Made by a program: the position numbers and the translations under genes. Below, piece by piece: positions 2,766-30,619 of a DNA stretch of 64,000 nt. The DNA is from Chloroflexota bacterium (GTDB lineage Bacteria > Chloroflexota > Anaerolineae > Anaerolineales > DRMV01): contig DRMV01000020.1 of the NCBI GenBank assembly GCA_011322445.1, positions 64,157 to 128,156 of the forward strand, given 5' to 3'. How positions within the stretch are numbered: position 1 is the stretch's first letter; the number at the start of each line of letters is the position of its first letter. The notes under the pieces are model-generated. The model did not search any database. It saw only the letters and a program-made list of their open reading frames with translations, and was not told the DNA's origin.

Positions 2766-4499
2766 TCAGGCACGGCGGGCTTTTTCCAGCCGTTCACGCA
2801 CCTCTGCCGGAGAAGCCAGCGAAAGCACCTCTGTCGCGAGGGCCTGCGCCTCGGCAAGCGGCCATGCTCGCACCGCGGCTTTCACCGCCGGAATCGAAGG
2901 CGCGGCCATGCTCAGTTCATCCACACCCAGGCCCAAAAGCACCGGAGCAGCCAGCGGGTCACCGCCGAGTTCCCCGCACACCCCTACCCAAACATCGTGG
3001 GCATGGGCAGCCTCCACCACCTGCTTGATCAGCCGCAACACCGCAGGATGCAACGCGTCGGCCATCGGCCCCACCGCCGGGTGCGTGCGGTCGGCGGCCA
3101 GGGTATATTGCGAGAGGTCGTTGGTGCCAATGCTGAAGAAATCCACTTCGCGCGCGAGCACATCGGCCAGCACCGCCGCGGAGGGTATCTCGATCATCAC
3201 TCCCACTTCCACGTTTTGCGCGTAAGGCAAGCCTTCTGCTTCCAACGCCTGACGAACAGCCGCCAGGTGGGTTTTAGCCGCGCACACTTCATCTACCGAC
3301 GCCACCATGGGGAACATGATTTTGACGCCCTCGGCATTCGCGCCAGCGCGCAAAATCGCGCGCAGTTGGGTGCGGAACATTTCCGGATGCGCCAGAGAAA
3401 GGCGAATGCCCCGCTGGCCGAGGAAGGGATTGGCTTCGGCGGGCAGGTGCAGATACGGAATGTCTTTGTCGCCGCCAATGTCGGCGGTGCGGAAGATGAC
3501 CGGCCGCCCGGCCATGACTTCCAGGTAAGGTGCATAAGCCGCCATTTGCTCTTCTTCGTCCGGCGGCGACGTCCGCTCCATGTAAAGGAATTCCGTGCGC
3601 AAGAGGCCTACGCCCTCGGCCCCGAAAGCCAGGGCCTGCTCGGCCTCCTCCCGGCCACCGCCGCCCAAATTAGCGCCAATTTCCACCCGGTGGCCGTCAG
3701 GCGTAATCGCGGGCGCGCCGGCCTCGGCCTGCGCGCTGCGGCGCGCCCGCGCCAGCGCGGTTTCCCGTTCCCGGTAGGCAGCCAGGGTGGCTTCCTCAGG
3801 GGAAACAATGACCTCGCCCGCCTCGCCATCGACGATCATCAAGACGCCTTCCCGTGCAGTTTCCAGCACGGCAGCATCAACCCCCACCACGGCAGGCAAC
3901 CCCAAACCGCGCGCCAAAATGGCGACATGCGAGGTTTTGCTGCCCTGCACCGTGCAAAAACCGCGCACGAGTTCGTGAGGAAGCAAAATCGTCTGAGAAG
4001 GGGTGAGTTCCTGCGCCACAATCACAGAAGGCTTTTCGGGCTGGGCAATGGCCCCTGCCGTGCCGCTCAGATGAGCCGCGACCCGCGCACCGACGTCGCG
4101 CAAATCCACCGCGCGGGCGCTGAACACCGGGTCGTTCAACGCTTCAAGCATGGCCGCCTGGGCCTCAATGGCCTGCTGCCAGGCTGTGAGGGCGCTTGTG
4201 CCCTCGCGAATGGCCGCTTCGACCTGCTGCGTCAAGGTCGGGTCATCCAAAAACATGGCGTGGACTTTGAAAATCTCGGCCTCTTGCCCCCCCACACGAC
4301 GCTGGGCTTCCTCATAGAGCCTTTGAATTTCTTCACGGGCGGCTTGCAAGGCGCGCTTCAGGCGGGCAAGTTCTTCTTCGGGGCTTCCCACCGATGCCGA
4401 GGCCCCCTGCCCCTTTGTGGAAGCAGCCGCAAACAAAAACGCCGGGGCAATTGCCACCCCGCCGGAAGCCGCAATGCCGCGAAATCGTCGTTCAGTCAT
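2766..4499 (-). CDS. ptsI: phosphoenolpyruvate-protein phosphotransferase (PTS enzyme I)
   Basis: The full-length architecture matches EI: MTERRFRGIAASGGVAIA N-terminus, the phosphohistidine region CTVQGSKTSHVAILARGLGLPAVVG, and a PEP-utilising C-domain (GLLRTEFLYM, FFSIGTNDLSQY). Start taken at ATG 4499, overlapping the SorC stop by 8 nt. Confidence 0.9.
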   Translation of the reverse strand: MTERRFRGIAASGGVAIAPAFLFAAASTKGQGASASVGSPEEELARLKRALQAAREEIQRLYEEAQRRVGGQEAEIFKVHAMFLDDPTLTQQVEAAIREGTSALTAWQQAIEAQAAMLEALNDPVFSARAVDLRDVGARVAAHLSGTAGAIAQPEKPSVIVAQELTPSQTILLPHELVRGFCTVQGSKTSHVAILARGLGLPAVVGVDAAVLETAREGVLMIVDGEAGEVIVSPEEATLAAYRERETALARARRSAQAEAGAPAITPDGHRVEIGANLGGGGREEAEQALAFGAEGVGLLRTEFLYMERTSPPDEEEQMAAYAPYLEVMAGRPVIFRTADIGGDKDIPYLHLPAEANPFLGQRGIRLSLAHPEMFRTQLRAILRAGANAEGVKIMFPMVASVDEVCAAKTHLAAVRQALEAEGLPYAQNVEVGVMIEIPSAAVLADVLAREVDFFSIGTNDLSQYTLAADRTHPAVGPMADALHPAVLRLIKQVVEAAHAHDVWVGVCGELGGDPLAAPVLLGLGVDELSMAAPSIPAVKAAVRAWPLAEAQALATEVLSLASPAEVRERLEKARRA

Positions 4500-5478
4500 G
4501 GTTTTGTCCTTGAGGCGTTGTGGCATCCAGGGAAAGGATCAATTCTGCGGCTTCGCTATCGGTCACCAGGTAATCAATGACACCGCTGCGCAACGCACCG
4601 AGGATGGCCGGGGCCTTTCTGCGTCCCCCAGCCACGCCCACCACCACGGGGATGCGCGTCAATCCTTCCCACGAGATGCCAATCAGCCGACGATGGAGGT
4701 CCAAATCGAGCAGTTCGCCATGCTGGTTATAGAAATAACCGCAGACATCCCCCACGCCGCCCAAGGCGGTAATCTGCTCCAGGTCGGCTTCCGAGAGCAG
4801 TTGCGCATTGAACATGCTGGAAAGCGTCGGCGGGGAAACCGCGCCAATGCCCACCAGGGCGATATCGGCCTGCTCGGCCAGCGCGATGGCATCGCGCACC
4901 GCTGGCGCGCTGACGATGGCCTCACGGGCTTCGGGGGTGCTGGCAAGCAAAGGGGCTGGCAGGTAACGGTATTGCCCAGAAAGCGTCTGCGCCAGCCAGC
5001 GGGTGAGGTCAGGGCCATCCAGCAAGGGGTTTACCGAGCCTACGGTGCCCATCAATTGCACCACGGTCACGCCTTTTTGGCGCGCCGAGCGCAAGGCGCT
5101 CACCACCTGATACACCCCGGTGCTCCAGGCAATGCCGAGTACCGACTTGCCTTCCAGCAACTCGGCCAGGCGGTTCGCGGCCAACACACCTAACGCCTGC
5201 ACCACCTGCATATAGCCGCGCCCGCCCCGGTCCATCACCAGCGCTTCCTGCAAGGGGAAACGCCGTTCTAACCGTGATTGCAGTTCCGCCACCCGGCTCC
5301 ACGGCCCTTGAATGCGAATTTCCACAATGCCAAGGTCGCGAGCCTCTGCCAACCAGCGCGAAACCTGCGAGCGGGAAACCCCCATCTCGCGCGCAATCTG
5401 CGCCTGTGTCAGATCTTGCTCATAATACAGGCGAGCCACGCGCGCCAGTTTCAGGTGATAGGGATCGGTGGTCGGCAT
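4492..5478 (-). CDS. SorC/DeoR-type sugar-binding transcriptional regulator
   Basis: N-terminal HTH LTQAQIAREMGVSRSQVSRWLAEARDLGIVEIRI followed by a sugar-phosphate-binding domain of the SorC/CggR type. 328 aa. Confidence 0.85.
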   Translation of the reverse strand: MPTTDPYHLKLARVARLYYEQDLTQAQIAREMGVSRSQVSRWLAEARDLGIVEIRIQGPWSRVAELQSRLERRFPLQEALVMDRGGRGYMQVVQALGVLAANRLAELLEGKSVLGIAWSTGVYQVVSALRSARQKGVTVVQLMGTVGSVNPLLDGPDLTRWLAQTLSGQYRYLPAPLLASTPEAREAIVSAPAVRDAIALAEQADIALVGIGAVSPPTLSSMFNAQLLSEADLEQITALGGVGDVCGYFYNQHGELLDLDLHRRLIGISWEGLTRIPVVVGVAGGRRKAPAILGALRSGVIDYLVTDSEAAELILSLDATTPQGQNHD

Positions 5479-5502: not shown

Positions 5503-5829
5503 TCAGCCCTTGCTTTCGGTTTTGCTTTCAGTTTCGGTTTCGCCTTCGCCAAAATTGCTTTCTGCCAACGCCTTCAGGGCTTGCAGCGCCTCCGCAGCAT
5601 CTTCTCCCGAAGCGACGATCTCGATTTCGTGCCCCTGCGCCACACCAATGCTCATCACACCCAAGATGCTTTTGGCATCAACGAAGGGCGTGCCGCGGGT
5701 GATATTGCGGACCTGCACGTTGGCCTGGAACTCACCAGCCGTTTGGACAAACAACGCTGCGGGGCGCGCGTGTAGCCCTACGGGGTTATTGATTTGCAAC
5801 ACCAGGGATAAACTTTCGCCTTCGCTCAT
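5503..5829 (-). CDS. ptsH: HPr-family phosphocarrier protein
   Basis: NPVGLHARPAALFV active-site His motif and the SILGVMSIG region. It carries an acidic E/T/S-rich C-terminal tail. The start (ATG 5829 or GTG 5832) overlaps the dhaM stop. Confidence 0.85.
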   Translation of the reverse strand: MSEGESLSLVLQINNPVGLHARPAALFVQTAGEFQANVQVRNITRGTPFVDAKSILGVMSIGVAQGHEIEIVASGEDAAEALQALKALAESNFGEGETETESKTESKG

Positions 5830-6224
5830 CACAAAATTTTCCTCATCGTGCTGGCAGCCTCGGCGGCCTTTTTGACTTCGTCTAACCCACGCCCCAGCGA
5901 GGCTTCCACAGCAGCCACAATGGCACCCTCGACCAGCGGGGCATCAGTCATTTGAATTTTTTCCTGTTGGTCGGCATCCATCATCTCGATGGCCATTTGG
6001 GCACTCATCACTGCACTGCCCAAATCCATCAGCACCAACACCCCATCGGGGGAATATGCGGCCTGCAAGGCTGCGAAAATCCGCTCGGCGTTGGTGCCCA
6101 GGGTTTCATCATCCACACCACCAGCGGCGGCAATTGCCACGCGCCCCTGGCTCATCTGTTCAGCCATTTCCTTGACGCCCTCGGCCACCTTGGCGCTGTG
6201 TGAAACAACAACGATTCCAATCAT
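5829..6224 (-). CDS. dhaM: dihydroxyacetone kinase phosphotransfer subunit (EIIA-Man-like single domain)
   Basis: MIGIVVVSHSAKVAEGVKEMAEQM... has the EIIA(Man)/DhaM N-terminal His motif (VSHS). Start ATG 6224 has an AAGGAG SD and an ATGA overlap with the preceding methyltransferase stop. dhaK and dhaL lie in the same operon. Confidence 0.8.
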   Translation of the reverse strand: MIGIVVVSHSAKVAEGVKEMAEQMSQGRVAIAAAGGVDDETLGTNAERIFAALQAAYSPDGVLVLMDLGSAVMSAQMAIEMMDADQQEKIQMTDAPLVEGAIVAAVEASLGRGLDEVKKAAEAASTMRKIL

Positions 6225-6859
6225 CTGCTTTGCTCCTTCGACGCGCGGCACCGAGGGCAAGTGGCAACTTCATGAACCGTCTCTTCTGTCCAGGGGTCAT
6301 CCCAAGAAGGCGGCTCTTTGAACCCCACCGCGCCGCACGCACAAGCATACCATCCCGGCGGGGCCGCGTCAAGACTCATCCTCGGCGCCTGCAAATCCAC
6401 GAGTTCGACGCCCATGTGCCAACGGGCGTTGGTAAACAAACGCTGCGCCCCCACGGCTTGCAGCCGTGAGAAAAAAACGGCGAAATGTTCCGAATGACGC
6501 ACCAACAAGATCCCCGTGGTCACATCATGGGGAAAGGGGAAATCCAGTGCGTTGGCGCAAATAACTTGCAAATTGGGCGGTAGCCCGGCGCCCATGCGAT
6601 GTAAAAAGTCGGCCACCAACGTCGGATGCACCTCTACCGCATAGACCTTGCGCACACGCCGGGCAGCCGCGACAGCCAGCCGGAAATCGCCTGCCCCAAT
6701 GTCCAGCACGACGTCTTCGGGTTTCAAGTGCTCTAACACAAAAGCATACACCGAAGGATCGTAAGGGGCGTACCACACTTCCCAGGGGCTCAATCCCCGT
6801 TGCGCCGCAAACGCGGCCACGTCGCCCTGGAACTGCGGGGCCTTGGCTTCCCACTTCAT
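6221..6859 (-). CDS. class I SAM-dependent methyltransferase with a Cys-rich C-terminal tail
   Basis: Motif I VVLDIGAGDFRLAVAAA, then RKVYAVEV. The C-terminal part contains YACACGAVG ... ATCPRCR (four Cys, zinc-ribbon-like). Start ATG 6859 overlaps the upstream stop (ATGA). Confidence 0.7.
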   Translation of the reverse strand: MKWEAKAPQFQGDVAAFAAQRGLSPWEVWYAPYDPSVYAFVLEHLKPEDVVLDIGAGDFRLAVAAARRVRKVYAVEVHPTLVADFLHRMGAGLPPNLQVICANALDFPFPHDVTTGILLVRHSEHFAVFFSRLQAVGAQRLFTNARWHMGVELVDLQAPRMSLDAAPPGWYACACGAVGFKEPPSWDDPWTEETVHEVATCPRCRASKEQSR

Positions 6860-7119
6860 CGTGAATGTAACCAACGGCTCAAAGTGAAAACGAACAGGAA
6901 CACCAACCACATGGCAGCGGTCATCACGGCCGCGACTTTCAAACTCACCTGCCAGTCAGCCCCCGGAGGAGCAGACAGCCACACCAGCACAAACACCGCC
7001 AGGGTCAAAAGCACCATCAACACCGTGCCTGTCCGGCGGCTTATCCAGGGCTTTGCCGTGCTCTTCGTCGTGCTGACTTCTACGGCTTCTTGCTCTTGTG
7101 CATCCCGTTTTTTGCTCAA
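6856..7119 (-). CDS. small two-TM membrane protein (87 aa)
   Basis: TTG start at 7119 lies 5 nt downstream of GGAGG. MSKKRDAQEQEAVEV... is followed by two hydrophobic helices (VLMVLLTLAVFVLVWL, AAVMTAAMWLVFLFVFTL). The track ORF start at 7194 would overlap the upstream anchor gene. Confidence 0.5.
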   Translation of the reverse strand: MSKKRDAQEQEAVEVSTTKSTAKPWISRRTGTVLMVLLTLAVFVLVWLSAPPGADWQVSLKVAAVMTAAMWLVFLFVFTLSRWLHSR

Positions 7120-7141
7120 AACAACCTCCGGAAATCGGTTT

Positions 7142-7474
7142 TCACACAATGGCGGCGAACAACCAAAGCCCATAGCCAAACAACAACAGCCCAAGCAGGG
7201 TCAACGCGACGGTCACGCCTCGCGCGGTTTTGGCCGAGACACCGCTATCGAGCACAAGGGCACGCACACCAGCCAGCGCGTGGAAAATCACCGTGGCAAG
7301 AAACAGGATTTCCAGCGTCAGCACCCACGGGTTGGAAAGATAATCCACCACCTGCTGGTAAGTCAGCAGCCCTCCCGCGGCAAAGTGGTTGACAATCAGG
7401 TGCACCGCCAACAGCACCACCAGCAGCAATCCACTCAAAGCCTGCCAAACCCAGGTGTTCAGGCGTCGTGACAT
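7142..7474 (-). CDS. succinate dehydrogenase/fumarate reductase-type membrane anchor subunit (SdhD-like)
   Basis: 110 aa with three TM helices. His-containing helices (LLAVHLIVNH, VIFHALAGVRA) are typical of small Sdh/Frd anchor subunits. It follows the SdhC-like gene by 10 nt. Confidence 0.7.
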   Translation of the reverse strand: MSRRLNTWVWQALSGLLLVVLLAVHLIVNHFAAGGLLTYQQVVDYLSNPWVLTLEILFLATVIFHALAGVRALVLDSGVSAKTARGVTVALTLLGLLLFGYGLWLFAAIV

Positions 7475-7484
7475 TGCGGTCTCC

Positions 7485-7886
7485 TTAGAGCATCAGCACG
7501 GCAGCAACGAGCGTCAACAGCGCCGAAAGCACCACCGTGCCCCAGAACATGGCTTCGTGCCGCTCCACGCCCACGTTGAGGCCCATGAGCATCAAGCGCA
7601 AGCCATTCAAGCCGTGGAAAAGTGTTGCGGCGATCAGCCCTACCTCAAGCACCGTAATCCAGAGGCTTTTCATGGCCGCCACCATGGCAGCGTATGCTTC
7701 TGGTCCACGAGCCAGATAACTCAAAAAGTAAAAATGGAGGAACAGGTAAAACACCAGCACCAAGCCGGTCAAACGGTGGAGTACGAAAGCCCAACCACCC
7801 ACACTGCGTCCTCGCAGGCGGAACCAGTCGCCAAAACGGCGCTTCGGTTGACGCGGCTCAGGTCGTTGGTAAGTATCAGAAACCAT
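7485..7886 (-). CDS. succinate dehydrogenase-type cytochrome b subunit (SdhC-like)
   Basis: 133 aa. HRLTGLVLVFYLFLHF and LFHGLNGLRLM motifs, three TM helices. Confidence 0.7.
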   Translation of the reverse strand: MVSDTYQRPEPRQPKRRFGDWFRLRGRSVGGWAFVLHRLTGLVLVFYLFLHFYFLSYLARGPEAYAAMVAAMKSLWITVLEVGLIAATLFHGLNGLRLMLMGLNVGVERHEAMFWGTVVLSALLTLVAAVLML

Positions 7887-7904
7887 GACGTCCTCCTCCA
7901 GCGC

Positions 7905-8603
7905 CTATTTGTGCTTGCCCGCGAGCAGTGTTTCCCGCAGGTACATGATCATGCTGCCCGGGTTGACGTCGTTGGGGCATGCCGCCGAACATTCCATGGC
8001 AGCATGGCAACGCCAGCACCCAGACTCGTTGTCTACCATCGCCAACACCGTGGGGACGCTCTGGCCGCGCGGCTCTTGCACTACTCGCGCTGCCGCAGCC
8101 AGGGCGGCCGGGCCCAGGTAGTCGGGGTCTGTCGCGACCACGGGGCACGCCGAGAGACACAAACCACACTCCAGACAGCTCTCAAAGCGCATGTAGGTGC
8201 CAACGGCTTCCGGCGGGGTGGCTTCCGGCCAATATTCGCTCTGGCGGATGTAAGGCATGCCCACCGGTTCGTATTTCTCGAAGAACGGCGTCATGTCTAC
8301 CACCAGGTCGCTCACCAGCGGCGCGTTGCGGAGCGGCTCCACGACGACCGTCTTGGTTTTCAGCGCCAGGACATTGGTTACACAGGCCAACACCTCTTTG
8401 CCGTTGACCAGCATACCGCACGTGCCGCAGGAACCGTGGTGACACGAATGGCGGTAGGTCAGCGTGGGGTCATCCAGCCGCAGCATTTCCAACACATCGA
8501 GCACGGTGGTGTGGTCTTCCACTTCCACCTGGAAAGTATCGTAACGCGGCGGGTCGATTTCACCGGGCTTGTAGCGAAAGATTTTGAAGGTCACCGTTGC
8601 CAT
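7905..8603 (-). CDS. succinate dehydrogenase/fumarate reductase-type iron-sulfur subunit (SdhB-like)
   Basis: Carries the 2Fe-2S motif SCHHGSCGTCGMLVNGKEVLAC, the 4Fe-4S motif CLECGLCLSACP and the 3Fe-4S motif CWRCHAAMECSAACP. Start ATG 8603 (MATVTFKIFRY) lies 1 nt after the GlpA-like stop. Confidence 0.85.
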   Translation of the reverse strand: MATVTFKIFRYKPGEIDPPRYDTFQVEVEDHTTVLDVLEMLRLDDPTLTYRHSCHHGSCGTCGMLVNGKEVLACVTNVLALKTKTVVVEPLRNAPLVSDLVVDMTPFFEKYEPVGMPYIRQSEYWPEATPPEAVGTYMRFESCLECGLCLSACPVVATDPDYLGPAALAAAARVVQEPRGQSVPTVLAMVDNESGCWRCHAAMECSAACPNDVNPGSMIMYLRETLLAGKHK

Positions 8604-8604
8604 G

Positions 8605-9777
8605 TCACCACCTCCGCCGGTAGTAAGCGGTGTGCGGCAGCAAGACGACCTCACGGGTGCGGCACGGGGCGTCGAGACCCAATTTACGCACCACGACGTT
8701 GGCCGTCACTTCAGCCATGCCGCGGGCCGTGGTTGCCTTGCCTCCGGCGATGGTGACAAAGCCCTCGACCCCATCGCGGTCGGCGTGGTCGAAGCATTTG
8801 AAGGTACGGCTGAGTTCGCGGCCGGTGTGCGCGCCACCGGAACCGATCAGCGGCCTTGCCGCCGCCCATGCTGCGCGCATTTTCGCGTTTTTGATCGCCG
8901 GCACCAACACTGCCCCATATTCATACATCAGTTGGATGTGTTCTTTCTTCATCTCCAGGCGGTCAGGGTCTTCCACAACCCACGAGCTGGTGCCGATGAC
9001 CGAAAGGGTGCGTTGAGGCACAATAATGTCGCCATCGCCCGAGCGGTGCATCCGGTTGAGGACCATGTTGTTCCACCGGCCGTACACGGCCACCAACACA
9101 CCCGGGGAAGGCTGTAAGGGCACATGCACGCCTGCCATGGCCGCGATCTTCCCCGACCAGGCCCCGCCAGCGTTGACCACGATGTCGGCGCCAATGGTGT
9201 AGGTTTTTTCGGTCACATGGTCGCGCACCCGGACGCCCACCACGGTCTTGCCTTGCATGAGAAGTTCTTCGACTTCGGTATAGGTTTTGATGACCGCACC
9301 ATTGCTTTGGGCCGTCGCCAAAAAGCGCAGGGGAAGCCGCATGGCATCCATCGTGCCGTCGGGCACTTCCACAGCGGCTTTGACTTCCGGGTTGAGGTTA
9401 GGCTCACGGGCCAGGGCTTCCTGAGGTGTGATTTCTTTATAAGGGATGCCGCAAGTTTCCAACCCCTCAAGGAAGGCCGGGCGGTAGGCCATATCTTCGT
9501 CGGTGATGGCAACAAAGAGGCCGTTGTTGAGTTCAAAGGAACCCGGTGCAATTTTGCGAAGGATGGTGTTTTCCTGGATACATTCTTTGGCGGATTCCTG
9601 GTCTTTGACCGCATAGCGCGCGCCGCTGTGAAGCAGGCCGTGGTGTCGGCCGCTGGTGCCCGAGGTAACCTCGCCGCGCTCCACAACGGTGACCTGCACG
9701 CCGCGCAGGCTCAGATCGTGCGCCAGCGCCGCGCCCGTCGCCCCGCCGCCGATAATGACCACATGGGGTTTGCTCAT
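8605..9777 (-). CDS. FAD-dependent glycerol-3-phosphate dehydrogenase, GlpA-like core without the C-terminal BFD-type 2Fe-2S domain
   Basis: VVIIGGGATGAALAHDLSLRG dinucleotide fold. GRHHGLLHSGARYAV, VPDGTMDAMRL, VVNAGGAWSG and FVTIAGGKATTARGMAE are colinear with E. coli GlpA as recalled from memory. The protein ends at 390 aa, whereas E. coli GlpA is about 540 aa. Confidence 0.8.
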   Translation of the reverse strand: MSKPHVVIIGGGATGAALAHDLSLRGVQVTVVERGEVTSGTSGRHHGLLHSGARYAVKDQESAKECIQENTILRKIAPGSFELNNGLFVAITDEDMAYRPAFLEGLETCGIPYKEITPQEALAREPNLNPEVKAAVEVPDGTMDAMRLPLRFLATAQSNGAVIKTYTEVEELLMQGKTVVGVRVRDHVTEKTYTIGADIVVNAGGAWSGKIAAMAGVHVPLQPSPGVLVAVYGRWNNMVLNRMHRSGDGDIIVPQRTLSVIGTSSWVVEDPDRLEMKKEHIQLMYEYGAVLVPAIKNAKMRAAWAAARPLIGSGGAHTGRELSRTFKCFDHADRDGVEGFVTIAGGKATTARGMAEVTANVVVRKLGLDAPCRTREVVLLPHTAYYRRRW

Positions 9778-9860: not shown

Positions 9861-11369
<1,509 letters not shown>

Positions 11370-11388: not shown

Positions 11389-12027
11389 TCAGGCGTCCGC
11401 ATGGTTCCACACTTCGGCTGCGGACTTAAAGAGCAGATACGAGGAAGTCGCGCCGGGGTCTTGATGTCCGGCGCTGCGCTCGCCCAGGTAGCTGGCACGC
11501 CCTCGACGGGCCACAAGGGGAATGGTGGCTTTCATGCCTTCTTCGGCCGCAGCGGTGGCCTTTTCCAGCGCCGTGTGCAGGTCTTCACCGGCTTCCACGG
11601 CCTTTTGAAGGGCTTCCACTGCGGGGGTGAGAGCGTCCACCATAGTTTTATCGCCAGGCTCTGCTTTGCCGCGCTGTTTGACGCCTTCCAGCGCAGCCTG
11701 GAACATCTTCACGACGTCTTCAGGGCTCAGCGCGTCTTTGTTGCCTACCGCCATCCCCATGCGCATGAAAAGGGTACCATACAAGGGGCCCCCTGCGCCT
11801 CCCACGGTGGACACCAGCACCATCCCCACTTTCTTGAGGATGGTGCCGATGTCCTTGTCTTCCACGGTGGGGAGTTGGGCCATCACAGCCTCAAACCCTC
11901 GCTGCATGTTGATGCCGTGGTCGGCGTCCCCGATGGCAGCATCCAGCTGGGTGAGGTATTCCTTCTGCTCGTCAATGACGTGGGCGTAATGCTTGAGCCA
12001 GTTTAGCACATCGGCTTTGGTTACCAT
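11389..12027 (-). CDS. dhaL: dihydroxyacetone kinase ADP-binding subunit
   Basis: 212 aa. LDAAIGDADHGINMQRGF motif typical of the DhaL/Dak2 domain. Confidence 0.9.
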   Translation of the reverse strand: MVTKADVLNWLKHYAHVIDEQKEYLTQLDAAIGDADHGINMQRGFEAVMAQLPTVEDKDIGTILKKVGMVLVSTVGGAGGPLYGTLFMRMGMAVGNKDALSPEDVVKMFQAALEGVKQRGKAEPGDKTMVDALTPAVEALQKAVEAGEDLHTALEKATAAAEEGMKATIPLVARRGRASYLGERSAGHQDPGATSSYLLFKSAAEVWNHADA

Positions 12028-12061: not shown

Positions 12062-13063
12062 TTACATGCCCCACCGGAGGGCTGGCGTCTTCACCGGCGC
12101 GTCCCAGAACTTCAGGAGTTCGTCATCAACTCGCAAGAGGGTAATCGAGGTGCCTGCCATTTCCAGCGAGGTGATGTAGTTGCCGATGAGGTTGCGCTCA
12201 ATCTTGATGCCTTTGGCATCGCAGATTTGCGCCAGGCGGCGATAGACGATGTAGAGTTCGATGAGCGGGGTACCGCCCATGCCGTTGACCATCGCAATGA
12301 CGCGATCGCCGGACTTGAAGGGCAGGTCTTCCAGGATGGCTTCGGCGAGCATATCGACGATTTCGTCGGCGGGTTTGATCTTCATGCGGGTGCGGCCCGG
12401 TTCGCCGTGAATGCCGATGCCGATTTCCATCTCATCGTCGCCAATATCGAAGGTGGGCTTGCCGGCAACCGGCACGGTGCAGGAAGTCAGGGCCATGCCC
12501 ATGCTGCGGCCGTTTTCGTTGACGCGCTTGGCAATTTCAGCCACTTTTGCCAGCGGAAGCCCGGCCTCAGCGGCGGCGCCGGCGATCTTTTCCACAAACA
12601 CCGTCACACCCACACCGCGGCGCCCCTGCGTGTAGAGGCTGTCTTCCACCGCGACGTCGTCGTTGGTGATCACCGTCGCGACTTCAATGCCCTCGCTCTG
12701 CGCCATCTCAGCGGCCATTTCAAAGTTCATCACATCGCCGCTGTAGTTCTTGACGATGTGAAGCACGCCCGCGCCGCCGCTCACGGCCTTGGTGGCTTCA
12801 TAAATCTGATCAGGGGTCGGCGAAGTGAACACTTCACCAGGGCAGGCCGCATCCAGCATGCCAACGCCCACATAGCCGCCGTGCAGGGGCTCGTGCCCGC
12901 TGCCGCCGCCGGAAACCAATGCGACTTTGCCTTTCACCGGCGCATCGGCGCGCACGATGTAGTGAGGGCTAATGTGCACCTTCACCAGGTCGGGGTGCGC
13001 AAGAGCGATGCCTTCCAGTTCTTCTTTTACGACATCTTCGGGCTTGTTAATCAGCTTTTTCAT
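12062..13063 (-). CDS. dhaK: dihydroxyacetone kinase DHA-binding subunit
   Basis: Start re-assigned to [26 protein letters not shown] (ATG 13063). Dak1 domain motifs include [15 protein letters not shown]. Confidence 0.9.
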
Positions 13064-13141
13064 GGGTGTTGCCTCCTTGCAACATGAAGCGGGGGAAAGC
13101 GCGCGGCCTGACGGTCCTGCGCCTTCCCCCGACAAACGACT

Positions 13142-13942
13142 TTACGATTCCTCAGCGGGCAGGAACGGCGTAATGAACCAATCGTAGGTGTACGCGCCCA
13201 ACACGCCACCGACGAGCGGCCCTATGATGGGTGCGACGAGCCAGTACCAGCCATCGAACAAGCCCTTGGTGCCGACCAGGGTACCAAACACACGCGGACC
13301 AAAGTCACGCGCCGGGTTGATGGCGTATCCGCTGGGGCCGCCCAGCGACAAGCCAATGGCGATCACCACGAAGCCAATCAGGAAAGGCCACAGGTTGGCG
13401 CCCACCGGCACGTTCCTGCTGTCGATCAGGGCGTAGATGCCCCAGATCAGCATCGCCGTGCCGATAATCTCTGCCGCCGTCGCATTCCAGAGGGAATAAT
13501 GCCCCACCGCGGCGGCGCCTTGCGCGCTGCCCCAGAAGGCCTTGCCGAACACCGAGCCCCAGCCCGTGCACCAAACGTTCGGCATGCCAGCAGCCTTCAG
13601 GCCGTCATAATAGACAATGTACACGCCCAGGGCGCCCAGGAAAGCGCCAATCACCTGCGCTACCCAGTACACCAGCACCTTCGACCAGGCGAACCCACGC
13701 TTGACAGCCGCCGCCAGGGTCACGGCGGGGTTAATGTGGGCGCCCGTAATGCCGCCGGCCACATACACAGCAACGGCTACGGCCAAACCCCATCCCCAGG
13801 CGATGGTGTTCCAGTCGTAGCCGGGAGCGGCCAGGCGCGGCGCCAAACCAACATTAGCCACTACGCCGTCGCCAAAAAGAATAAGGACAAACGTGCCGAC
13901 GAGTTCGGCAACAAACTCACCCCATAAACCTTTCTCCTTCAT
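13142..13942 (-). CDS. glpF: MIP-family glycerol uptake facilitator / aquaglyceroporin
   Basis: Two NPA boxes (HINPAVTLA, AINPARDFGPR) and six TM helices. Start ATG 13942 (MKEKGLWGEF) lies 8 nt after AAGGAG. Confidence 0.9.
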   Translation of the reverse strand: MKEKGLWGEFVAELVGTFVLILFGDGVVANVGLAPRLAAPGYDWNTIAWGWGLAVAVAVYVAGGITGAHINPAVTLAAAVKRGFAWSKVLVYWVAQVIGAFLGALGVYIVYYDGLKAAGMPNVWCTGWGSVFGKAFWGSAQGAAAVGHYSLWNATAAEIIGTAMLIWGIYALIDSRNVPVGANLWPFLIGFVVIAIGLSLGGPSGYAINPARDFGPRVFGTLVGTKGLFDGWYWLVAPIIGPLVGGVLGAYTYDWFITPFLPAEES

Positions 13943-14137
13943 CTTTTCATCTCCTTGTGAGACGTGGAAAAACGGACGAATAAGAGAAGACAAAACTTGC
14001 AGGAGCGTTTATTCATTTGTCGCTATCTTGGCTGCCCGTCACCTCCTTCCCAGCGCACAAGTTTCACACAGCGGTCACGACGATCATTTCTCCGCGTTCG
14101 CGCACAGATGTGCACGCATTGCACAAATGACACAAAC

Positions 14138-23395: not shown

Positions 23396-25351
23396 TTACG
23401 GGCAATAGCGCAATTGTGTTTGCTGCAACGTGCTTTCCGCACCGTTGCCCGCGTCGTCCACGGCTTTGATGTAGAATTCCACATAGCCGTCCCGTTGCTT
23501 CATCCAGCCTGCGGCTTCTTTGGTATTGACCAACACCTCAAAACCTACCTGACCGCCCATGGCCGCATCGTGTACCGGCGCGGTGTGCCAGGCGCTGGGT
23601 TTCCCGCCCTTGGGGGTGAAGCGGTAGACCAAGGTGATGTTGCTCTGGCTGATGCCGCCGTCATCCGTCACCCGCGCGGTCACGTGGAGGATGGTCGAGC
23701 CGCACAACCCCGGCCCGTAGAACACCTGGGATTCCAACGCCCGCACATCGCGGATGGTGGGCGGCGTGGTGTCCGAAGCCGGGGGCGGGGTGGGTGTCGG
23801 CGTAGGGGTTGGGGTAGGCGTGGGCGGTGGCGGCGGGGTGACAACGGGCACGGCTTCCAGACCCTCGATTTCGCCCAGGTAGGTCGCCACCCAGCAGTGC
23901 ACCTGGTAAGGCTCCCAATATACATACAGCCACGAGTTGTCGGCCAGCCGTCCCTCGACGGGAACCTCACTGCCCGCCATCAGCGTGGCCACCGCGGCGT
24001 AAACCCGACTGGGGCCCTGGCGGCAGAAGGCGTTTTGCGTGGGATGGAAGACCAGCGGCACCGGGCTGGGCGGGGTGGGCGAGCCGTCCACCGGGTGCAC
24101 CGTCAGAAACTGAAAGTCCCAGCCGAAGTCGGCGCTCACGCTGGTCTCCAGCGCGGCGGCGACGGGTTGGGCCGCCACGCCCTCGGTGGTCGCCGGGTGC
24201 GTCCACCGACCGGGGGGCAGGATGCCGTCGTTGGGCGTCTCGCCAGCGTCCACCTGGACGCAGAACGAACCCTCGGGAACGCCAAAGGCGTAGTGCCCCT
24301 CGCTGTCGGTGAGGGCGCTGTCGAAGAGCACCCCATCGCAACCGCCGACATACAGGTTCACCTTCACCCCTGCGATGCCCGGCTCGTCGGCCTGGCGGAT
24401 GCCATCGCCGTGGACGCTGCCGTCGGCGTCCACTACACAGCCTTCCGGCGGCGGGTCGGGCAGGGGGCCGTCGGGCACGTCGCATAGGTCGTTCCAGACC
24501 ACACCTTCGATCCGTCCCCAGGGCGCGCAGTCGCTGCCGGTGGGTGGGTTGACCAGAAAATGCCGCGTCTCGGAGTAGGGGCCCACGGTGCCGTCGGCCC
24601 GTACCGCGGCCACGCGCCAGTAGTAAATCTGGCAGGCTGACGGCTCATGCCCCAGGCCCCAGACGGTGGAGGGGTCGCCGGTGCCACCGTTCAGCCCCAC
24701 GTCGACTGAAAAATCCGCTGCGGTGGATACCTCGATGCGATAGCCGTCCGGCAGGCAGGGCTCCGGATAGTCCCAAACGAAGGCATCTGCGGGGTAGTCG
24801 AAGGCCGCCCCGTTTTCGGGGGCGAGCAGCACCGGCGCGGCCAGGGCGGTGCCCGCGTCGCACATGGGGCCGGTGAAGAAAACGATTCGCCCGGCCGAGG
24901 CACCGGCCCGGCCATCGGAGCCCACCGCGTGGATGGACCAGGCGTAAGCCGTGGCGGGCTGGAGCGCGGTGGGAGGCGTCCAGCGCCGCGCGGTGGCGGG
25001 CAGGGCTTCGCGGACGACCGTGGCGTCGTCGAAGGTGGGGCCGGTGTAGAAGTACAGTTCGAAGTGGTCGGGCACGCAGGGGGTGGTCGCGTCGCCGTAC
25101 TGCCAGGTGAGTTCCGGCGTCAGGGTGTCCACCACCGCCCGGTCGCCTGGGCTGGTTTGGGTCAGGGCGCCCATGTGCGCGGAATCGCACACGGGCAGGG
25201 GCAGCCCTGGGGCCGCCGTGGTGCCACCGGGAGCTATCGGCGTGGCTTGAGGCGCAGGCGTGGTCGGGAGGTTACAGGCGGCCAGCCCAAAGGTCAGCAG
25301 CAAGGCCGCGGTGAAAGGCCAAAAGCGGAAGAAAGATGAAATACGGCGCAT
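23396..25351 (-). CDS. secreted multidomain lipoprotein, function unknown (FN3-like repeats, SdrD-B/Cna-B-like, SH3b-like, PT linker, Ig-like)
   Basis: Lipobox LTFGLAACN. Two FN3-like modules (LTPELTWQYG...YAWSIHAV and FVWDYPEP...YYWRVAAV). GIAGVKVNLY...TDSEGHYAFGVPEG module. PPPPPTPTPTPTPTPTPPP linker. Confidence 0.7.
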   Translation of the reverse strand: MRRISSFFRFWPFTAALLLTFGLAACNLPTTPAPQATPIAPGGTTAAPGLPLPVCDSAHMGALTQTSPGDRAVVDTLTPELTWQYGDATTPCVPDHFELYFYTGPTFDDATVVREALPATARRWTPPTALQPATAYAWSIHAVGSDGRAGASAGRIVFFTGPMCDAGTALAAPVLLAPENGAAFDYPADAFVWDYPEPCLPDGYRIEVSTAADFSVDVGLNGGTGDPSTVWGLGHEPSACQIYYWRVAAVRADGTVGPYSETRHFLVNPPTGSDCAPWGRIEGVVWNDLCDVPDGPLPDPPPEGCVVDADGSVHGDGIRQADEPGIAGVKVNLYVGGCDGVLFDSALTDSEGHYAFGVPEGSFCVQVDAGETPNDGILPPGRWTHPATTEGVAAQPVAAALETSVSADFGWDFQFLTVHPVDGSPTPPSPVPLVFHPTQNAFCRQGPSRVYAAVATLMAGSEVPVEGRLADNSWLYVYWEPYQVHCWVATYLGEIEGLEAVPVVTPPPPPTPTPTPTPTPTPPPASDTTPPTIRDVRALESQVFYGPGLCGSTILHVTARVTDDGGISQSNITLVYRFTPKGGKPSAWHTAPVHDAAMGGQVGFEVLVNTKEAAGWMKQRDGYVEFYIKAVDDAGNGAESTLQQTQLRYCP

Positions 25352-25401
25352 GAGGTTCTCCTTTTGTATTCAGTGATGGGTAGGGGCAGCAGTGCCGTCC
25401 C

Positions 25402-26829
25402 CTACCCGTTCTCCATTCGCGGCTGCACGCGGAACACATGCACCACCGACTTGTCCTCGTCGGCCAGGCGCTCGATGATGTAAATCAGCCCCCGCTCGCG
25501 GTCGAAGGCCATGGCGCCCACCAGGTCGCGTTTGTACGCTTCCAGGTGGATGTGCGGGTCGAAGAGGACGTCGTCCAGCACCAGGGTGGCGTAAGGCTGG
25601 GGTTCCCAGGTTTCCTTTTCGCCGCGGGCCACCGCGACCAGGTCGGCGGGGTCGTAGAAGATGAGTTGCGCCTGGTAGCCCTCGGCCCAGTAGCCCCGGT
25701 CGTCGTAGGGCCAGTCGGGCACTTCGGGGCAGGTGGGCGGGTTTTGCTCCGCGCATTCGTAGGGCCACACCACGCCGTTGGCGAAGCCGTACCAGGACTG
25801 GCCCACGGCTTTGGTGCCCACGAAGACCACCGCGGCTTTGTCCCCGGCCGTGAGCCACGCGCCGCCCCACCAGTGATCCGCGTCGCCGTAGCCCTGCATG
25901 GCCGTGGTCTCGTCGCTGACGATGTCCGTAGCGCCGGGTTCCTGCCGGCCGTAGAGCAGCAGGGGCTGCACGGTGTGCAGCGTGGCGCCGGGCGCGGGCG
26001 GGTTGCCTTCCTGCCAGGGGGCTAAGGCGAAGAGGGCCGGGCCGCGGCCGCTCCAGGGGCCTTCGCGGGCCCGCCCCACCGCCAAGGCGCGGCCACCTAA
26101 AGCCGCAGCCCATGCCGGGGGAATGGCGAACATGTAGTCGTCGGTGACATAGGGGGAATACCCGTCGCACACCCACAGCCCATCGGCCGCGCCCTGGCTC
26201 AGGTTCAGCCCCCGCCGCCCCAAGGAGGGCTCGCCGAACTCCTGGAAGTGGGCGCCGAAGGTGAAGTACAGGTGGGCCTCCTGCTGGCCTTCCTGGGGCG
26301 GCAGGTAGGCCAGGCCCGCGCGGGGCAGGTCCACGGCCTGGGGGTCGAACAGGCCGCCGCTGAGGTCGGCGAAGGGCTGCAAGGTGGTGGCGGTGGGCAG
26401 GTCGTCCAGGTTGCGGGAGCGCACCGGCGCGGGGATGCTGATTTCCGAGACCTGCATCTCCTGGTCGTGGCCGAAGCCCATCAGCGAGCCGGGAAAGCCG
26501 TCGTCCGGGCCGTTGGGGTCGCCGCCGGGGATGTAGGTGAGCCCCTGGCCGCTGTAGGCCCAACTGGAGCCGCCCGAAGCATCGGGCAGGCGAAAAGCGC
26601 CTAAGTATTCCAGGTCTTGGGGCCGGATGCGCGCCGCGGTGGGTGCCGGGCCGCCCTCCTGGCCGGAAGGCGGGGCGGTAGCCGCCTCGAGGGCCGCGGT
26701 CATCGGGGGCGCGGTGGCCGGGCTTTGGGCCGGGTTCTGCGCCGGGGCTGCCGTGAGGGGCGTGCGGCCCAGGTTGCAACTCAGCAGGATGCCCAGGGTC
26801 AGCAGTACAAGGAAGTGGGGTTTGTTCAT
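25402..26829 (-). CDS. secreted lipoprotein, function unknown
   Basis: Start re-assigned to ATG 26829 (MNKPHFLVLLTLGILLSCN lipobox), 7 nt after AAGGAGG. Normal amino acid composition, in contrast to the overlapping R/P/G-rich 572-aa alternate-frame ORF. Confidence 0.7.
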   Translation of the reverse strand: MNKPHFLVLLTLGILLSCNLGRTPLTAAPAQNPAQSPATAPPMTAALEAATAPPSGQEGGPAPTAARIRPQDLEYLGAFRLPDASGGSSWAYSGQGLTYIPGGDPNGPDDGFPGSLMGFGHDQEMQVSEISIPAPVRSRNLDDLPTATTLQPFADLSGGLFDPQAVDLPRAGLAYLPPQEGQQEAHLYFTFGAHFQEFGEPSLGRRGLNLSQGAADGLWVCDGYSPYVTDDYMFAIPPAWAAALGGRALAVGRAREGPWSGRGPALFALAPWQEGNPPAPGATLHTVQPLLLYGRQEPGATDIVSDETTAMQGYGDADHWWGGAWLTAGDKAAVVFVGTKAVGQSWYGFANGVVWPYECAEQNPPTCPEVPDWPYDDRGYWAEGYQAQLIFYDPADLVAVARGEKETWEPQPYATLVLDDVLFDPHIHLEAYKRDLVGAMAFDRERGLIYIIERLADEDKSVVHVFRVQPRMENG

Positions 26830-26991
26830 AAAACCTCCTTGGGCCGACAGATTTTCTGTAATTACCTGCGTGGTGGCAAAACGCCTCTGTCGGCGGTTTT
26901 TCTTTGGAGTGCGGCGACGAGTTGCCTGTCCTGAGTGCATCGAAGGGCCGCTTTCCAAAGCGGTGCCAAGGCACCGCACTCCGAAAAGGGC

Positions 26992-27022
26992 GTAGGGGCG
27001 ACCCCGGCGGGGTCGCCCCTAC
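26992..27022. repeat. GC-rich REP-like hairpin, perfect copy
   Basis: GTAGGGGCGACCCC-ggc-GGGGTCGCCCCTAC forms a 14-bp perfect stem. A second hairpin, CGGTGCC-aa-GGCACCG, lies at 26961..26976. Both are in the gap between two lipoprotein genes. Confidence 0.8.
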
Positions 27023-27050
27023 GGGTGGGGGGAGGCCGCCGGGCATTCCC

Positions 27051-29198: not shown

Positions 29199-29210
29199 GA
29201 TTGTCCTCCG

Positions 29211-30050
29211 TCAGGGGAGTTGGATGGTGAAATACCAGGGGGTGGACCAATTGCTGAAGTTGCCGGCGCCGTCTTGCGCCCGCACCATCCAGCGATAATG
29301 ACCGCCGCATTGCACCTGCACGGCGACCTGGCGTTCTTTCAAGGGGCCATACCCGGCAACCGGTTGCCATTGGTTGGCCTGGGTTTCCATTTCCAGTTTG
29401 ACATAGTAGCCTGCTACGCCACTGGGGTCGTCCACCGGAAGCCAGACTAAGGTCTGCTCGGAGCGGCAGGCGAAGGTGGAGCCGTCCATAGGCGCAAAGG
29501 GTTGCGGTGCGGGTGGCGGCGTGGTGTCCGGCGTTGGGGTGAAGGTGGGCGTGGCGGTGGGGGTGGGAGTGAAAGTGGGCGTGGGGGTGAGAGTGAGGGT
29601 AGGCGTTGGAGTCAGTGTGGGCGTGATGGAAGTTGGAGTAGGCGGCAGGGTGGTCGCCGTAGCCACGGTGGGCACCGGCGTTGGCCCGGTGACTTCAATG
29701 GTGACCGAGGCTGCCGGGCCGCGTTGCCCCTGGGCATCGGTGAGATACACGGCCAGGGTGTACGTGCCAGGAGCGGGGGGCACCCACGCCTGCTCCAGGG
29801 AGCCAAAATCATCGCCGGGCGTGGGGAAGGCATCGCGGCGATAGGCCACCCCGTTGACCAGCAGGGTGATTTCGGCCACCCCGGCAGGCGCGTAATGGTG
29901 GGAAAGCACGGTCACGGCCTCGCCCACGGCAAAGGTGTCGCCGGATAGGGGATAATCCATCCACGATTGCGGGCCGGGGGCCGCTGTGCGGCTACACGCG
30001 GTCACCGCGAAGACGAGCATCACGAGCCATAGCCAACGGTATCGGTTCAT
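29211..30050 (-). CDS. secreted lipoprotein (Ig-like, PT linker, FN3-like)
   Basis: Lipobox VFAVTACS. The N-terminal domain resembles the Ig-like domain of the preceding protein. Linker PTPTSITPTLTPTPTLTLTPTPTFTPTPTATPTFTPTP. C-terminal module LVWLPVDDPSGVAGYYV...HYRWMVRAQD. Confidence 0.7.
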   Translation of the reverse strand: MNRYRWLWLVMLVFAVTACSRTAAPGPQSWMDYPLSGDTFAVGEAVTVLSHHYAPAGVAEITLLVNGVAYRRDAFPTPGDDFGSLEQAWVPPAPGTYTLAVYLTDAQGQRGPAASVTIEVTGPTPVPTVATATTLPPTPTSITPTLTPTPTLTLTPTPTFTPTPTATPTFTPTPDTTPPPAPQPFAPMDGSTFACRSEQTLVWLPVDDPSGVAGYYVKLEMETQANQWQPVAGYGPLKERQVAVQVQCGGHYRWMVRAQDGAGNFSNWSTPWYFTIQLP

Positions 30051-30134
30051 GGGTTTTCCTCCTTGGGGGAAGGGTGAGATCCATCTTCCACGCTGGCCGA
30101 AAAGAGGGATCGCTTCGCTCCAGCGGGGGTGTCC

Positions 30135-30488
30135 TCACCTCTCCTCTCGCAGCCAGCCGCGCACGGCCGCCAGGTCCAGGTCATCTTTGGCGTAGAAGGC
30201 TTCGGCCCCGACCGCAGCCGCTGCGGCCGCGAATTGCGGGTAGGCGCTCACCAGCACGATCCGCAGGCCGGGGCAGCGTTCCCGCAGCAGGCGCCCGCCT
30301 TCCAGGCCGTTGGTGCCGGGCAGCAGAACATCCACCACGGCCAGGTCGTAAGCGCAGCCAGCCATCCGCGCTAAGGCCTGGGGAATGTCGGCGGCGGTGT
30401 GCACCCGCGCCGCACCGGCCCGGCGCAACAGGTCAGCCAGTTGATTGCGAAAGGCAGGGTTGTCGTCGATGATGAGCACCTGAGACAT
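30135..30488 (-). CDS. single-domain (CheY-like) response regulator receiver
   Basis: MSQVLIIDDNPAF..., phospho-acceptor context LAVVDVLLPG, then LVSAY and YAKDD. Start ATG 30488. Confidence 0.8.
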   Translation of the reverse strand: MSQVLIIDDNPAFRNQLADLLRRAGAARVHTAADIPQALARMAGCAYDLAVVDVLLPGTNGLEGGRLLRERCPGLRIVLVSAYPQFAAAAAAVGAEAFYAKDDLDLAAVRGWLREER

Positions 30489-30619
30489 AAGGACTCCGGG
30501 CAAGGCGGTCACGACACTTGCCCTTTTACCTTAGCCTTTTCCCCCTGAAAGCGCATCGGCGCGGCGTACCGTTTGAGGTACTAACTTGAGAACGAGAACA
30601 TGGTACCGGGGTACCGGCA

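Follow-up and report, generated by a model that had tools for sequence, protein, structure and literature searches.

A four-gene module within the glycerol operon of a hydrothermal-vent Anaerolineales bacterium probably encodes one membrane-bound respiratory glycerol-3-phosphate (G3P):menaquinone oxidoreductase, as judged from sequence comparison and structure prediction. The design as such is real and common in bacteria; the idea behind it is not new, since it was printed for an archaeon in 2025 on the basis of gene order. According to the proposed mechanism, GlpK would supply G3P, which a short GlpA would oxidise to DHAP on non-covalently bound FAD. As its own BFD 2Fe-2S domain has been lost, this GlpA would bind with no intermediary to the 2Fe-2S domain of an SdhB paralogue that is dedicated to it, and electrons would then travel from the 2Fe-2S via the 4Fe-4S to the 3Fe-4S cluster and further to an SdhC/SdhD-type anchor, probably of di-haem type, at which menaquinone would be reduced. 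Gene anatomy, domain content, conserved cofactor ligands, recurrent synteny, separate clades and the lack of any further G3P dehydrogenase among the genes found are what the sequences show; the substrate, the assembly of the complex, the sequence of electron transfer steps, the haem number and the quinone acceptor are what we infer here.

All four genes are located on the minus strand of the window (the whole stretch of 64,000 nucleotides that was analysed), exactly where the initial annotation had placed them. The first one, glpA-short (8605..9777), encodes the core of an FAD-dependent G3P dehydrogenase of 390 amino acids that lacks the BFD 2Fe-2S domain. It is followed by sdhB-like (7905..8603), coding for an iron-sulfur subunit of 232 amino acids with 2Fe-2S-, 4Fe-4S- and 3Fe-4S-type cysteine motifs, and by the genes of two membrane anchors with about three transmembrane helices each, sdhC-like (7485..7886; 133 amino acids) and sdhD-like (7142..7474; 110 amino acids). 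Intergenic gaps amount to only 1, 18 and 10 nt, and a GGAGG-like site precedes each next gene. The glpA-sdhB junction reads TGG TGA C ATG, with a single C at 8604 between the stop (8607-8605) and the ATG (8603-8601), so that the spacing of one nucleotide claimed for it is exact; GGAGG is found 7-11 nt 5' of this ATG, and the ribosome binding site of sdhB-like hence falls inside the end of glpA-short. Upstream on the same strand, glpK (9861..11369; FGGY_N 5.3e-84, FGGY_C 7.2e-50), the glycerol kinase gene as source of the G3P substrate, ends 83 nt before glpA-short starts, and is itself preceded by dhaL (11389..12027; Dak2 9.3e-62), dhaK (12062..13135; Dak1 3.3e-139; an internal ATG is probably the true start) and the glycerol facilitator gene glpF (13142..13993; MIP 2.5e-51). 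Profile scans of the cluster's reading frames yielded no glpB, glpC or sdhA/frdA, as had been noted before, and an Rfam scan of the whole window returned no match.

The arrangement recurs widely. In a synteny survey of 80 related loci, labelled chiefly as Chloroflexota and Actinomycetota and also as Desulfobacterota and Spirochaetota, an sdhB-like gene directly follows short glpA in 56, and sdhC- and/or sdhD-like genes then follow in 39, while glpK is found directly upstream of short glpA in most of them. Seventeen loci, from Desulfobacterota, Spirochaetota and others, have the GlpA-SdhB pair but no SdhC/D-like gene behind it. Not every such module thus carries a membrane anchor, and the GlpA-SdhB heterodimer appears to be the conserved core. 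Downstream of the sdhB-like gene in a Desulfovibrio- and a Spirochaeta-type locus (L075, of Nitratidesulfovibrio sp. HK-II, and L086, respectively), no alternative anchor was identified; the plus-strand reading frames present there are probably not genes, given that they show no Pfam match, no transmembrane helix and a biased composition. The SdhB of another locus (L039) carries a fused CCG domain, a feature shared with TfrB and GlpC.

Phylogenetic analysis agrees with such a specialised partnership. In two GlpA trees, the short GlpAs linked to SdhB fall into a single clade that contains no long form (74 rows with FastTree support 99, 48 rows with SH-aLRT 99), and a single change on the tree accounts for their label; at the same time, glpA-short branches among long GlpA forms in each of the trees. 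Likewise, one branch with a support of 99 splits GlpA-linked from SdhA-linked SdhBs of the same class, and the examined SdhBs of the GlpA-linked clade all adjoin a short GlpA and none an SdhA. When the class was sampled at one genome per family (41 genomes), all five examined loci with a low-scoring second SdhB had it beside a short GlpA, while a high-scoring SdhB had an adjacent SdhA in 21 of 23 loci examined, the other two being short loci. Bacterial SdhB-linked short GlpAs likely constitute a monophyletic, widespread and as yet uncharacterised group of respiratory G3P dehydrogenases, with a DAAO-fold flavoprotein in place of SdhA on a complex-II chassis, the GlpA-SdhB heterodimer as conserved core and a membrane or electron-exit module that has been repeatedly swapped (di-haem SdhCD, CCG-domain fusion, no adjacent anchor).

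The remainder of the genome, which is 96% complete, was searched for canonical counterparts. A complete icd-sdhC-sdhD-sdhA-sdhB locus is present on a separate contig, and the single Succ_DH_flav_C match of the genome lies on contig C11, the flavoprotein of the cluster being of the DAO family. With canonical sdhCDAB complete, there is no orphan SdhA in need of the glpA-linked SdhBCD, and their assignment as partners of such an SdhA is thus ruled out. Neither GlpB (best match 23 bits) nor GlpC (none above cut-off) nor GlpD (top match glpA-short itself) was found in this 96%-complete genome, which leaves glpA-short as its sole GlpA/GlpD-family gene and the sole G3P dehydrogenase found.

Direct contact between the two subunits was addressed by complex prediction, the kind of check that had been suggested earlier for a GlpA-core/SdhB interface. 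For GlpA-short and the SdhB-like subunit, a score of 0.94, which is the model's own confidence, was obtained in three of three runs, compared with 0.00 for the best of three controls. Of 80 solved complexes, 58 attained this mark, as did 2 of 110 mismatched pairs, counts that apply only roughly here because custom alignments and riding ligands were used in the runs. Contact agreement between runs reached at least 96%, with a pLDDT of at least 92 for the partner chain. On the SdhB side, the predicted interface comprises the 2Fe-2S loop (residues 51-61 and 74-75), and on the GlpA side residues 35-44, 146, 230 and 300-306 as well as the C-terminal tail 381-390. Neither of two PDB searches with GlpA-short brought up an SdhB-containing complex with a chain of DAAO fold, which makes it less likely that the high score stems from the model's memory. 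The prediction thus supports binding of GlpA to SdhB through the 2Fe-2S loop.

As an alternative, short GlpA might need no partner and oxidise G3P as a peripheral or monotopic dehydrogenase or oxidase, similar to GlpD, GlpO or the short GlpA of Sulfolobus, with SdhBCD working separately, e.g., as a second anchor set for canonical SdhA. In line with this, the clade nearest to the SdhB-linked one in the FastTree analysis (node support 88) consists of archaeal, CoxG-linked short GlpAs of 420-434 amino acids, whose membrane attachment is by the small CoxG only, and at some of the loci examined (e.g., L051) a short GlpA stands without an SdhB. A solitary GlpA is nevertheless quite improbable in view of the junction of one nucleotide with its ribosome binding site inside glpA, the pairing across several phyla, the exclusive association of the clade's examined SdhBs with short GlpA next to a complete canonical sdhCDAB, and the predicted placement of C-terminal tail and FAD-proximal loops on the 2Fe-2S loop. 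The complex-II-like electron wire suggested by the initial annotation is backed by recurrent synteny, a separate GlpA-linked SdhB clade and complex prediction, its function being that of a putative quinone reductase.

The SdhB-like protein matches Fer2_3 (3.5e-30), Fer4_8 (2.1e-9) and TIGR00384 (196.8 bits at a cut-off of 88), and 46 orthologues all retain its cysteine motifs C54/C59/C62/C74, C143/C146/C149/C153-P and C199/C205/C209-P, in agreement with its description as a complete SdhB-type subunit with three Fe-S clusters. Its identity to the canonical SdhB of the same genome is 38%. The two small proteins, described earlier as His-containing anchors of Sdh/Frd type, both match Sdh_cyt, SdhC-like with 1.3e-19 (and TIGR02970 with 79 bits at a cut-off of 52.3) and SdhD-like with 5.8e-12, the latter staying under NCBIfam cut-offs. 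Among 39 orthologues, H51, H91 and R38 of SdhC-like as well as H25, H30, H65 and D76 of SdhD-like are conserved to at least 95%. The His positions of SdhC-like recur in canonical SdhC, and H25, H65 and D76 of SdhD-like are the same in canonical SdhD. Four His residues are hence both invariant and matched in the canonical anchors (H51 and H91 of SdhC-like, H25 and H65 of SdhD-like), a pattern that probably fits two haems; haem number and quinone site are read from these conserved residues.

Slightly less probable than a solitary GlpA is a G3P dehydrogenase with a different acceptor or direction, that is, a quinol:DHAP reductase or an enzyme with a partner other than menaquinone. Such variation is hinted at by the 17 loci with the GlpA-SdhB pair only, by the SdhB-CCG fusion at L039 and by a separate clade of short GlpAs linked to EtfAB. 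Here, however, both anchors are present with conserved haem-ligand His residues, R38 and D76, MenA is found in the genome (219 bits at a cut-off of 102), and the catabolic operon setting with glpF and glpK favours oxidation. Moreover, the G3P/DHAP couple lies at about -190 mV, which renders menaquinone reduction exergonic.

With regard to the flavoprotein, its description as a GlpA-like protein of 390 amino acids without C-terminal BFD domain proved accurate. Residues 5-351 match Pfam DAO (E 3.3e-49), and the NCBIfam GlpA profile TIGR03377 is matched with 460.7 bits over positions 1-378 of 530 only, compared with 640.8 bits for the positive control, a canonical GlpA from Chloroflexota. The score falls under the full-length equivalog cut-off of 552.8 bits because 150 C-terminal profile positions are missing. 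No Fer2_BFD and no DAO_C match was obtained in the Pfam scan of glpA-short, and its residues 6-381 align with 46% identity to a canonical Chloroflexota GlpA of 538 amino acids, which extends about 156 residues beyond, whereas glpA-short stops 9 residues past the core alignment. An assembly or frameshift artefact as cause of the truncation is ruled out, as 46 orthologues measure 380-402 amino acids and the sdhB start follows directly after the stop. Competing profiles score far lower on glpA-short than GlpA does (GlpD 97.9, ThiO 74.5 and LhgO 42.9 bits), and the 97.9 bits for GlpD profile NF008899 compare with a cut-off of 360, so that the protein does not belong to GlpD. A grouping with non-G3P oxidases such as the L-2-hydroxyglutarate type, which would have spoken against the original reading, is thus seen neither in the profile scores nor in the two trees, where the protein falls within the GlpA radiation. 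The AlphaFold2 model of glpA-short (pLDDT 92) has GlpD and GlpO as its closest PDB folds (TM 0.80-0.84). Furthermore, R54, R308 and R324 are kept in all of 46 orthologues and K347 in nearly all, and these four residues match identical residues of the G3P dehydrogenase 3da1 in the alignment. Least probable of the alternatives is that the flavoprotein converts another 2-hydroxy or amino acid, as part of a different quinone reductase merely located within the glycerol operon: the functional diversity of the DAAO superfamily and the score under the equivalog cut-off are compatible with it, but the latter is explained by the missing profile positions, the match to the GlpA core far exceeds that to other families, the gene directly follows glpK in most related loci as the only GlpA/GlpD-family gene of this genome, and the four residues are conserved with solved G3P enzymes.

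Several known systems invite comparison with the proposed oxidoreductase. Of the same design is a G3P dehydrogenase of the 'GlpA-SdhBCD' type, a prediction based on gene order for Thermofilum pendens and other Thermofilales, where a short GlpA that lacks the BFD domain precedes counterparts of the b, c and d subunits of succinate dehydrogenase, with a link to glycerol kinase (Schmerling et al., Commun Biol 2025, PMC11962113, Fig. 9b). Both share a short glpA directly followed by sdhB-, sdhC- and sdhD-like genes next to glycerol kinase or catabolism genes. While the Thermofilum type is archaeal and known by synteny alone, the one described here occurs in bacteria, with a wide distribution across Chloroflexota, Actinomycetota and further phyla; the likeness lies in gene order. 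Another archaeal enzyme, GlpA-CoxG of Sulfolobus acidocaldarius, has been characterised biochemically and also contains a truncated GlpA without BFD domain (Schmerling et al. 2025, PMC11962113). In contrast to the module described here, it is attached to the membrane by the small CoxG, with no Fe-S/haem wire. Canonical GlpABC of E. coli and Haloferax has a homologous catalytic core and the same substrate and pathway position, and other Chloroflexota have glpABC at the corresponding site of their glycerol operon (L105). Here, in contrast, the BFD domain is missing, neither GlpB nor GlpC is found in the genome, and electrons would leave via paralogues of SdhB, SdhC and SdhD. With complex II of the two-anchor di-haem type, as encoded by the organism's own sdhCDAB, the module shares a three-cluster SdhB and the His pattern of SdhC and SdhD, whereas its flavoprotein is a DAAO-fold GlpA instead of SdhA/FrdA and its SdhB belongs to a separate clade. 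To our knowledge, this would be the first flavoprotein of DAAO fold to take the place of SdhA on a complex-II chassis.

Should the complex work as proposed, the SdhB/SdhCD wire would represent a reusable chassis that accepts a flavoprotein of unrelated fold and is thus not tied to SdhA/FrdA. In many Chloroflexota and Actinomycetota, electrons from glycerol would then reach the menaquinone pool mainly through this complex. Bacterial glpA has been said to co-occur consistently with glpB and glpC (PMC11962113), a claim that would be contradicted and need correction. Genes of this kind are currently annotated as an 'FAD-dependent oxidoreductase' and a 'succinate dehydrogenase iron-sulfur subunit', labels that would mislead metabolic reconstructions and may lead to overcounting of complex II.

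Two short-GlpA representatives (P0144 and P0157) are each preceded by a protein of about 406 amino acids without Pfam match. Within the operon, which reads glpF-dhaK-dhaL-glpK-[glpA-sdhBCD]-MT-dhaM and is adjoined by a SorC-type regulator and PtsI, the module is followed on the minus strand by a SAM-methyltransferase-like gene (MT, 6221..6910; Methyltransf_25 2.5e-6, RrnaAD 6.4e-7) and by dhaM with its PTS EIIA-Man-type domain (5829..6260; EIIA-man 4.3e-31). The methyltransferase-like gene is conserved in such operons, and its homologues share the operon in many loci irrespective of the type of G3P dehydrogenase.

The window's minus strand carries 12 closely packed genes, from glpF (MIP; 13142-13993) through dhaK (12062-13135), dhaL (11389-12027), glpK (9861-11369), the gene for a 390-aa DAO-family flavoprotein (GlpA-short; 8605-9777), an SdhB-type protein (7905-8603), two Sdh_cyt-type membrane proteins, SdhC-like (7485-7886) and SdhD-like (7142-7474), a methyltransferase-like gene (6221-6910), dhaM (5829-6260) and a SorC-type regulator (4492-5478) to ptsI (2766-4526). 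The glpA/sdhB-like boundary reads TGG TGA C ATG with GGAGG preceding the ATG, which places the sdhB-like start one base past the glpA stop, exactly the spacing reported in the initial annotation of the cluster. Further along, 18 nt separate the sdhB- and sdhC-like genes and 10 nt the sdhC- and sdhD-like genes, and a Shine-Dalgarno-like site precedes both sdhC-like and sdhD-like.

GlpA-short matches the GlpA equivalog model with 460.7 bits, remaining below the cut-off of 552.8 bits because the match is limited to model positions 1-378 of 530, and scores far lower against GlpD (97.9), ThiO (74.5) and L-2-hydroxyglutarate oxidase (42.9), so that its placement in the GlpA family stands. It is 46% identical to a 538-aa canonical Chloroflexota GlpA across residues 6-381 and then ends, the canonical protein extending about 156 residues beyond the alignment; in the canonical GlpA of L085, a related locus from another genome, Pfam locates a BFD-like domain at 433-477, though the match is weak (21.7 bits; cut-off 26). 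The AlphaFold2 model of GlpA-short (pLDDT 92) finds its closest solved folds in GlpD and GlpO (TM 0.80-0.84). Residues R54, R308, R324 and K347 align with the same residues in the glycerol-3-phosphate (G3P) dehydrogenase 3da1, are invariant or almost so in 46 orthologues, and would correspond to the residues that bind substrate in E. coli GlpD.

The SdhB-like protein shares 38% identity with the canonical SdhB of this genome and contains all three Cys motifs, invariant among 46 orthologues. When GlpA-short and SdhB-like (46-row alignments each) were predicted together with FAD and a 2Fe-2S cluster, the pair scored 0.94 in three of three runs as opposed to 0.00 for the best of three controls. 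Among solved complexes, 58 of 80 attained this mark, as did 2 of 110 mismatched pairs; both counts are only approximate here because the alignments were custom-made and ligands were included. Contacts agreed by at least 96% between runs, partner pLDDT was at least 92, and the predicted interface joins the 2Fe-2S loop of SdhB-like (residues 51-61 and 74-75) to residues 35-44, 146, 230, 300-306 and the C-terminal tail 381-390 of GlpA-short. PDB searches with GlpA-short brought up no DAAO-fold protein solved together with SdhB, which makes it less likely that the score reflects a memorised structure; the model supports binding of GlpA-short to SdhB-like. In the putative anchors, H51, H91 and R38 of SdhC-like and H25, H30, H65 and D76 of SdhD-like are at least 95% conserved among 39 orthologues. 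H51/H91 and H25/H65 align with histidines in canonical SdhC and SdhD, and these four histidines, located at the two ends of helices 1 and 2 in each subunit, would fit a di-haem anchor like those that work with menaquinone; MenA was found in the genome.

That an SdhA encoded elsewhere draws on the SdhBCD-like set is contradicted by a complete icd-sdhC-sdhD-sdhA-sdhB locus on another contig of the 96% complete assembly, and the set is therefore not required by SdhA. Within the same assembly, neither GlpB nor GlpD was found and nothing exceeded the cut-off for GlpC, leaving GlpA-short as the sole GlpA/GlpD-family enzyme found for G3P from the adjacent GlpK. Overall, the observed gene arrangement is confirmed, and its reading as a complex-II-like electron route from G3P oxidation is supported.

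Species-representative genomes were scanned, and the gene content of the 80 loci obtained was read by tblastn with the window proteins. An SdhB-like gene directly follows the GlpA-like gene in 56, with SdhC- and/or SdhD-like genes next in 39 of these, mostly in the same glpF-dhaKL-glpK...dhaM operon. By label, these 39 belong to Chloroflexota (Anaerolineales, Caldilineales, Ardenticatenia, Thermoflexales, Limnocylindria and others) or Actinomycetota, besides one Planctomycetaceae-labelled MAG. The remaining 17 loci with the pair only carry the labels Desulfobacterales, Desulfovibrio/Nitratidesulfovibrio, Spirochaetota and UASB14, plus one Anaerolineales and one Solirubrobacteraceae. No recognisable anchor gene adjoins the pair in 13 Desulfobacterota and Spirochaetota loci (L066, L068, L069, L072, L073, L075, L076, L078, L079, L086, L087, L097 and L103). 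In a 41-genome sample of the window's class, with a single representative for each family, canonical SdhB occurs in 21 and a second, lower-scoring SdhB in at least eight of those; the latter adjoins a short GlpA in five of five fetched loci. The high-scoring form adjoins SdhA in 21 of 23 fetched loci, the other two being short loci with no flavoprotein gene within range. In a Streptosporangiaceae MAG (L050:8881-10032), a second GlpA-like gene, 44% identical to the window's, lies directly 3' of the module's sdhD-like gene.

In GlpA-core trees (199-row FastTree; 111-row quick IQ-TREE), all short GlpAs linked to SdhB fall into a single clade with support 99 in both and no long form within, and SdhB linkage changes once. 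This clade lies among GlpAs that bear the BFD domain, an indication that the domain was lost along with SdhB recruitment. Its nearest neighbours in FastTree (node support 88) are archaeal 420-434-aa proteins, two of which have CoxG genes beside or near them, as in the Sulfolobus type. In a 75-row SdhB tree, with canonical SdhBs from the window's class only, one branch (support 99) splits SdhA-linked from GlpA-linked forms.

The Sulfolobus GlpA-CoxG enzyme was characterised by Schmerling et al. (Commun Biol 2025, PMC11962113), who also drew a GlpA-SdhBCD type for Thermofilum pendens on the basis of synteny only and stated that bacterial glpA is consistently found with glpB and glpC. Full-text literature searches found no description of a bacterial GlpA-SdhBCD form. 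Whereas the published type is that of Thermofilum pendens, the window module is bacterial; it is a new bacterial member of a kind known on paper, a predicted G3P dehydrogenase.

In the Solirubrobacteraceae locus (L039:7177-8727, from a MAG), the gene directly after short glpA encodes a 516-aa SdhB with a fused CCG cysteine-rich domain, resembling TfrB or GlpC, and no SdhC/D comes after it; this may represent a variant module for electron exit or membrane attachment. Other Anaerolineae MAGs (L088:4089-7146, also L089 and L098) carry etfB-like and etfA-like genes and then a 386-aa short GlpA in the same glycerol-operon type as the window, without SdhB, GlpB or GlpC. Their GlpA falls in a clade other than the SdhB-linked one, suggesting a third partner type, "GlpA-EtfAB". 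In Chloroflexota MAG CFX8 (L105:3829-10321), the place that the SdhBCD-type module takes in the window's operon is filled by canonical glpA (640.8 bits), glpB and glpC, with a DhaR-type regulator ahead of them, so that the G3P dehydrogenase module has been exchanged within one phylum.

The window's methyltransferase-like gene (6221-6910, minus strand), between sdhD-like and dhaM, encodes a class-I SAM-methyltransferase-like protein with a Cys-rich C-terminus, and homologues occur in glycerol operons of many Chloroflexota with SdhBCD-, GlpBC- or Etf-type modules alike. Just 3' of sdhD-like, a small ORF (6856-7121, minus strand) predicted to encode two TM helices is matched weakly by tblastn (E 3e-5 to 0.05) at different positions in glycerol operons from a few Anaerolineae loci (L053, L034, L057, L056, L065), and may encode a small accessory membrane protein or reflect chance. 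G+C content is 0.66-0.69 at 24000-32000, compared to 0.55-0.64 in the window's first 24 kb.
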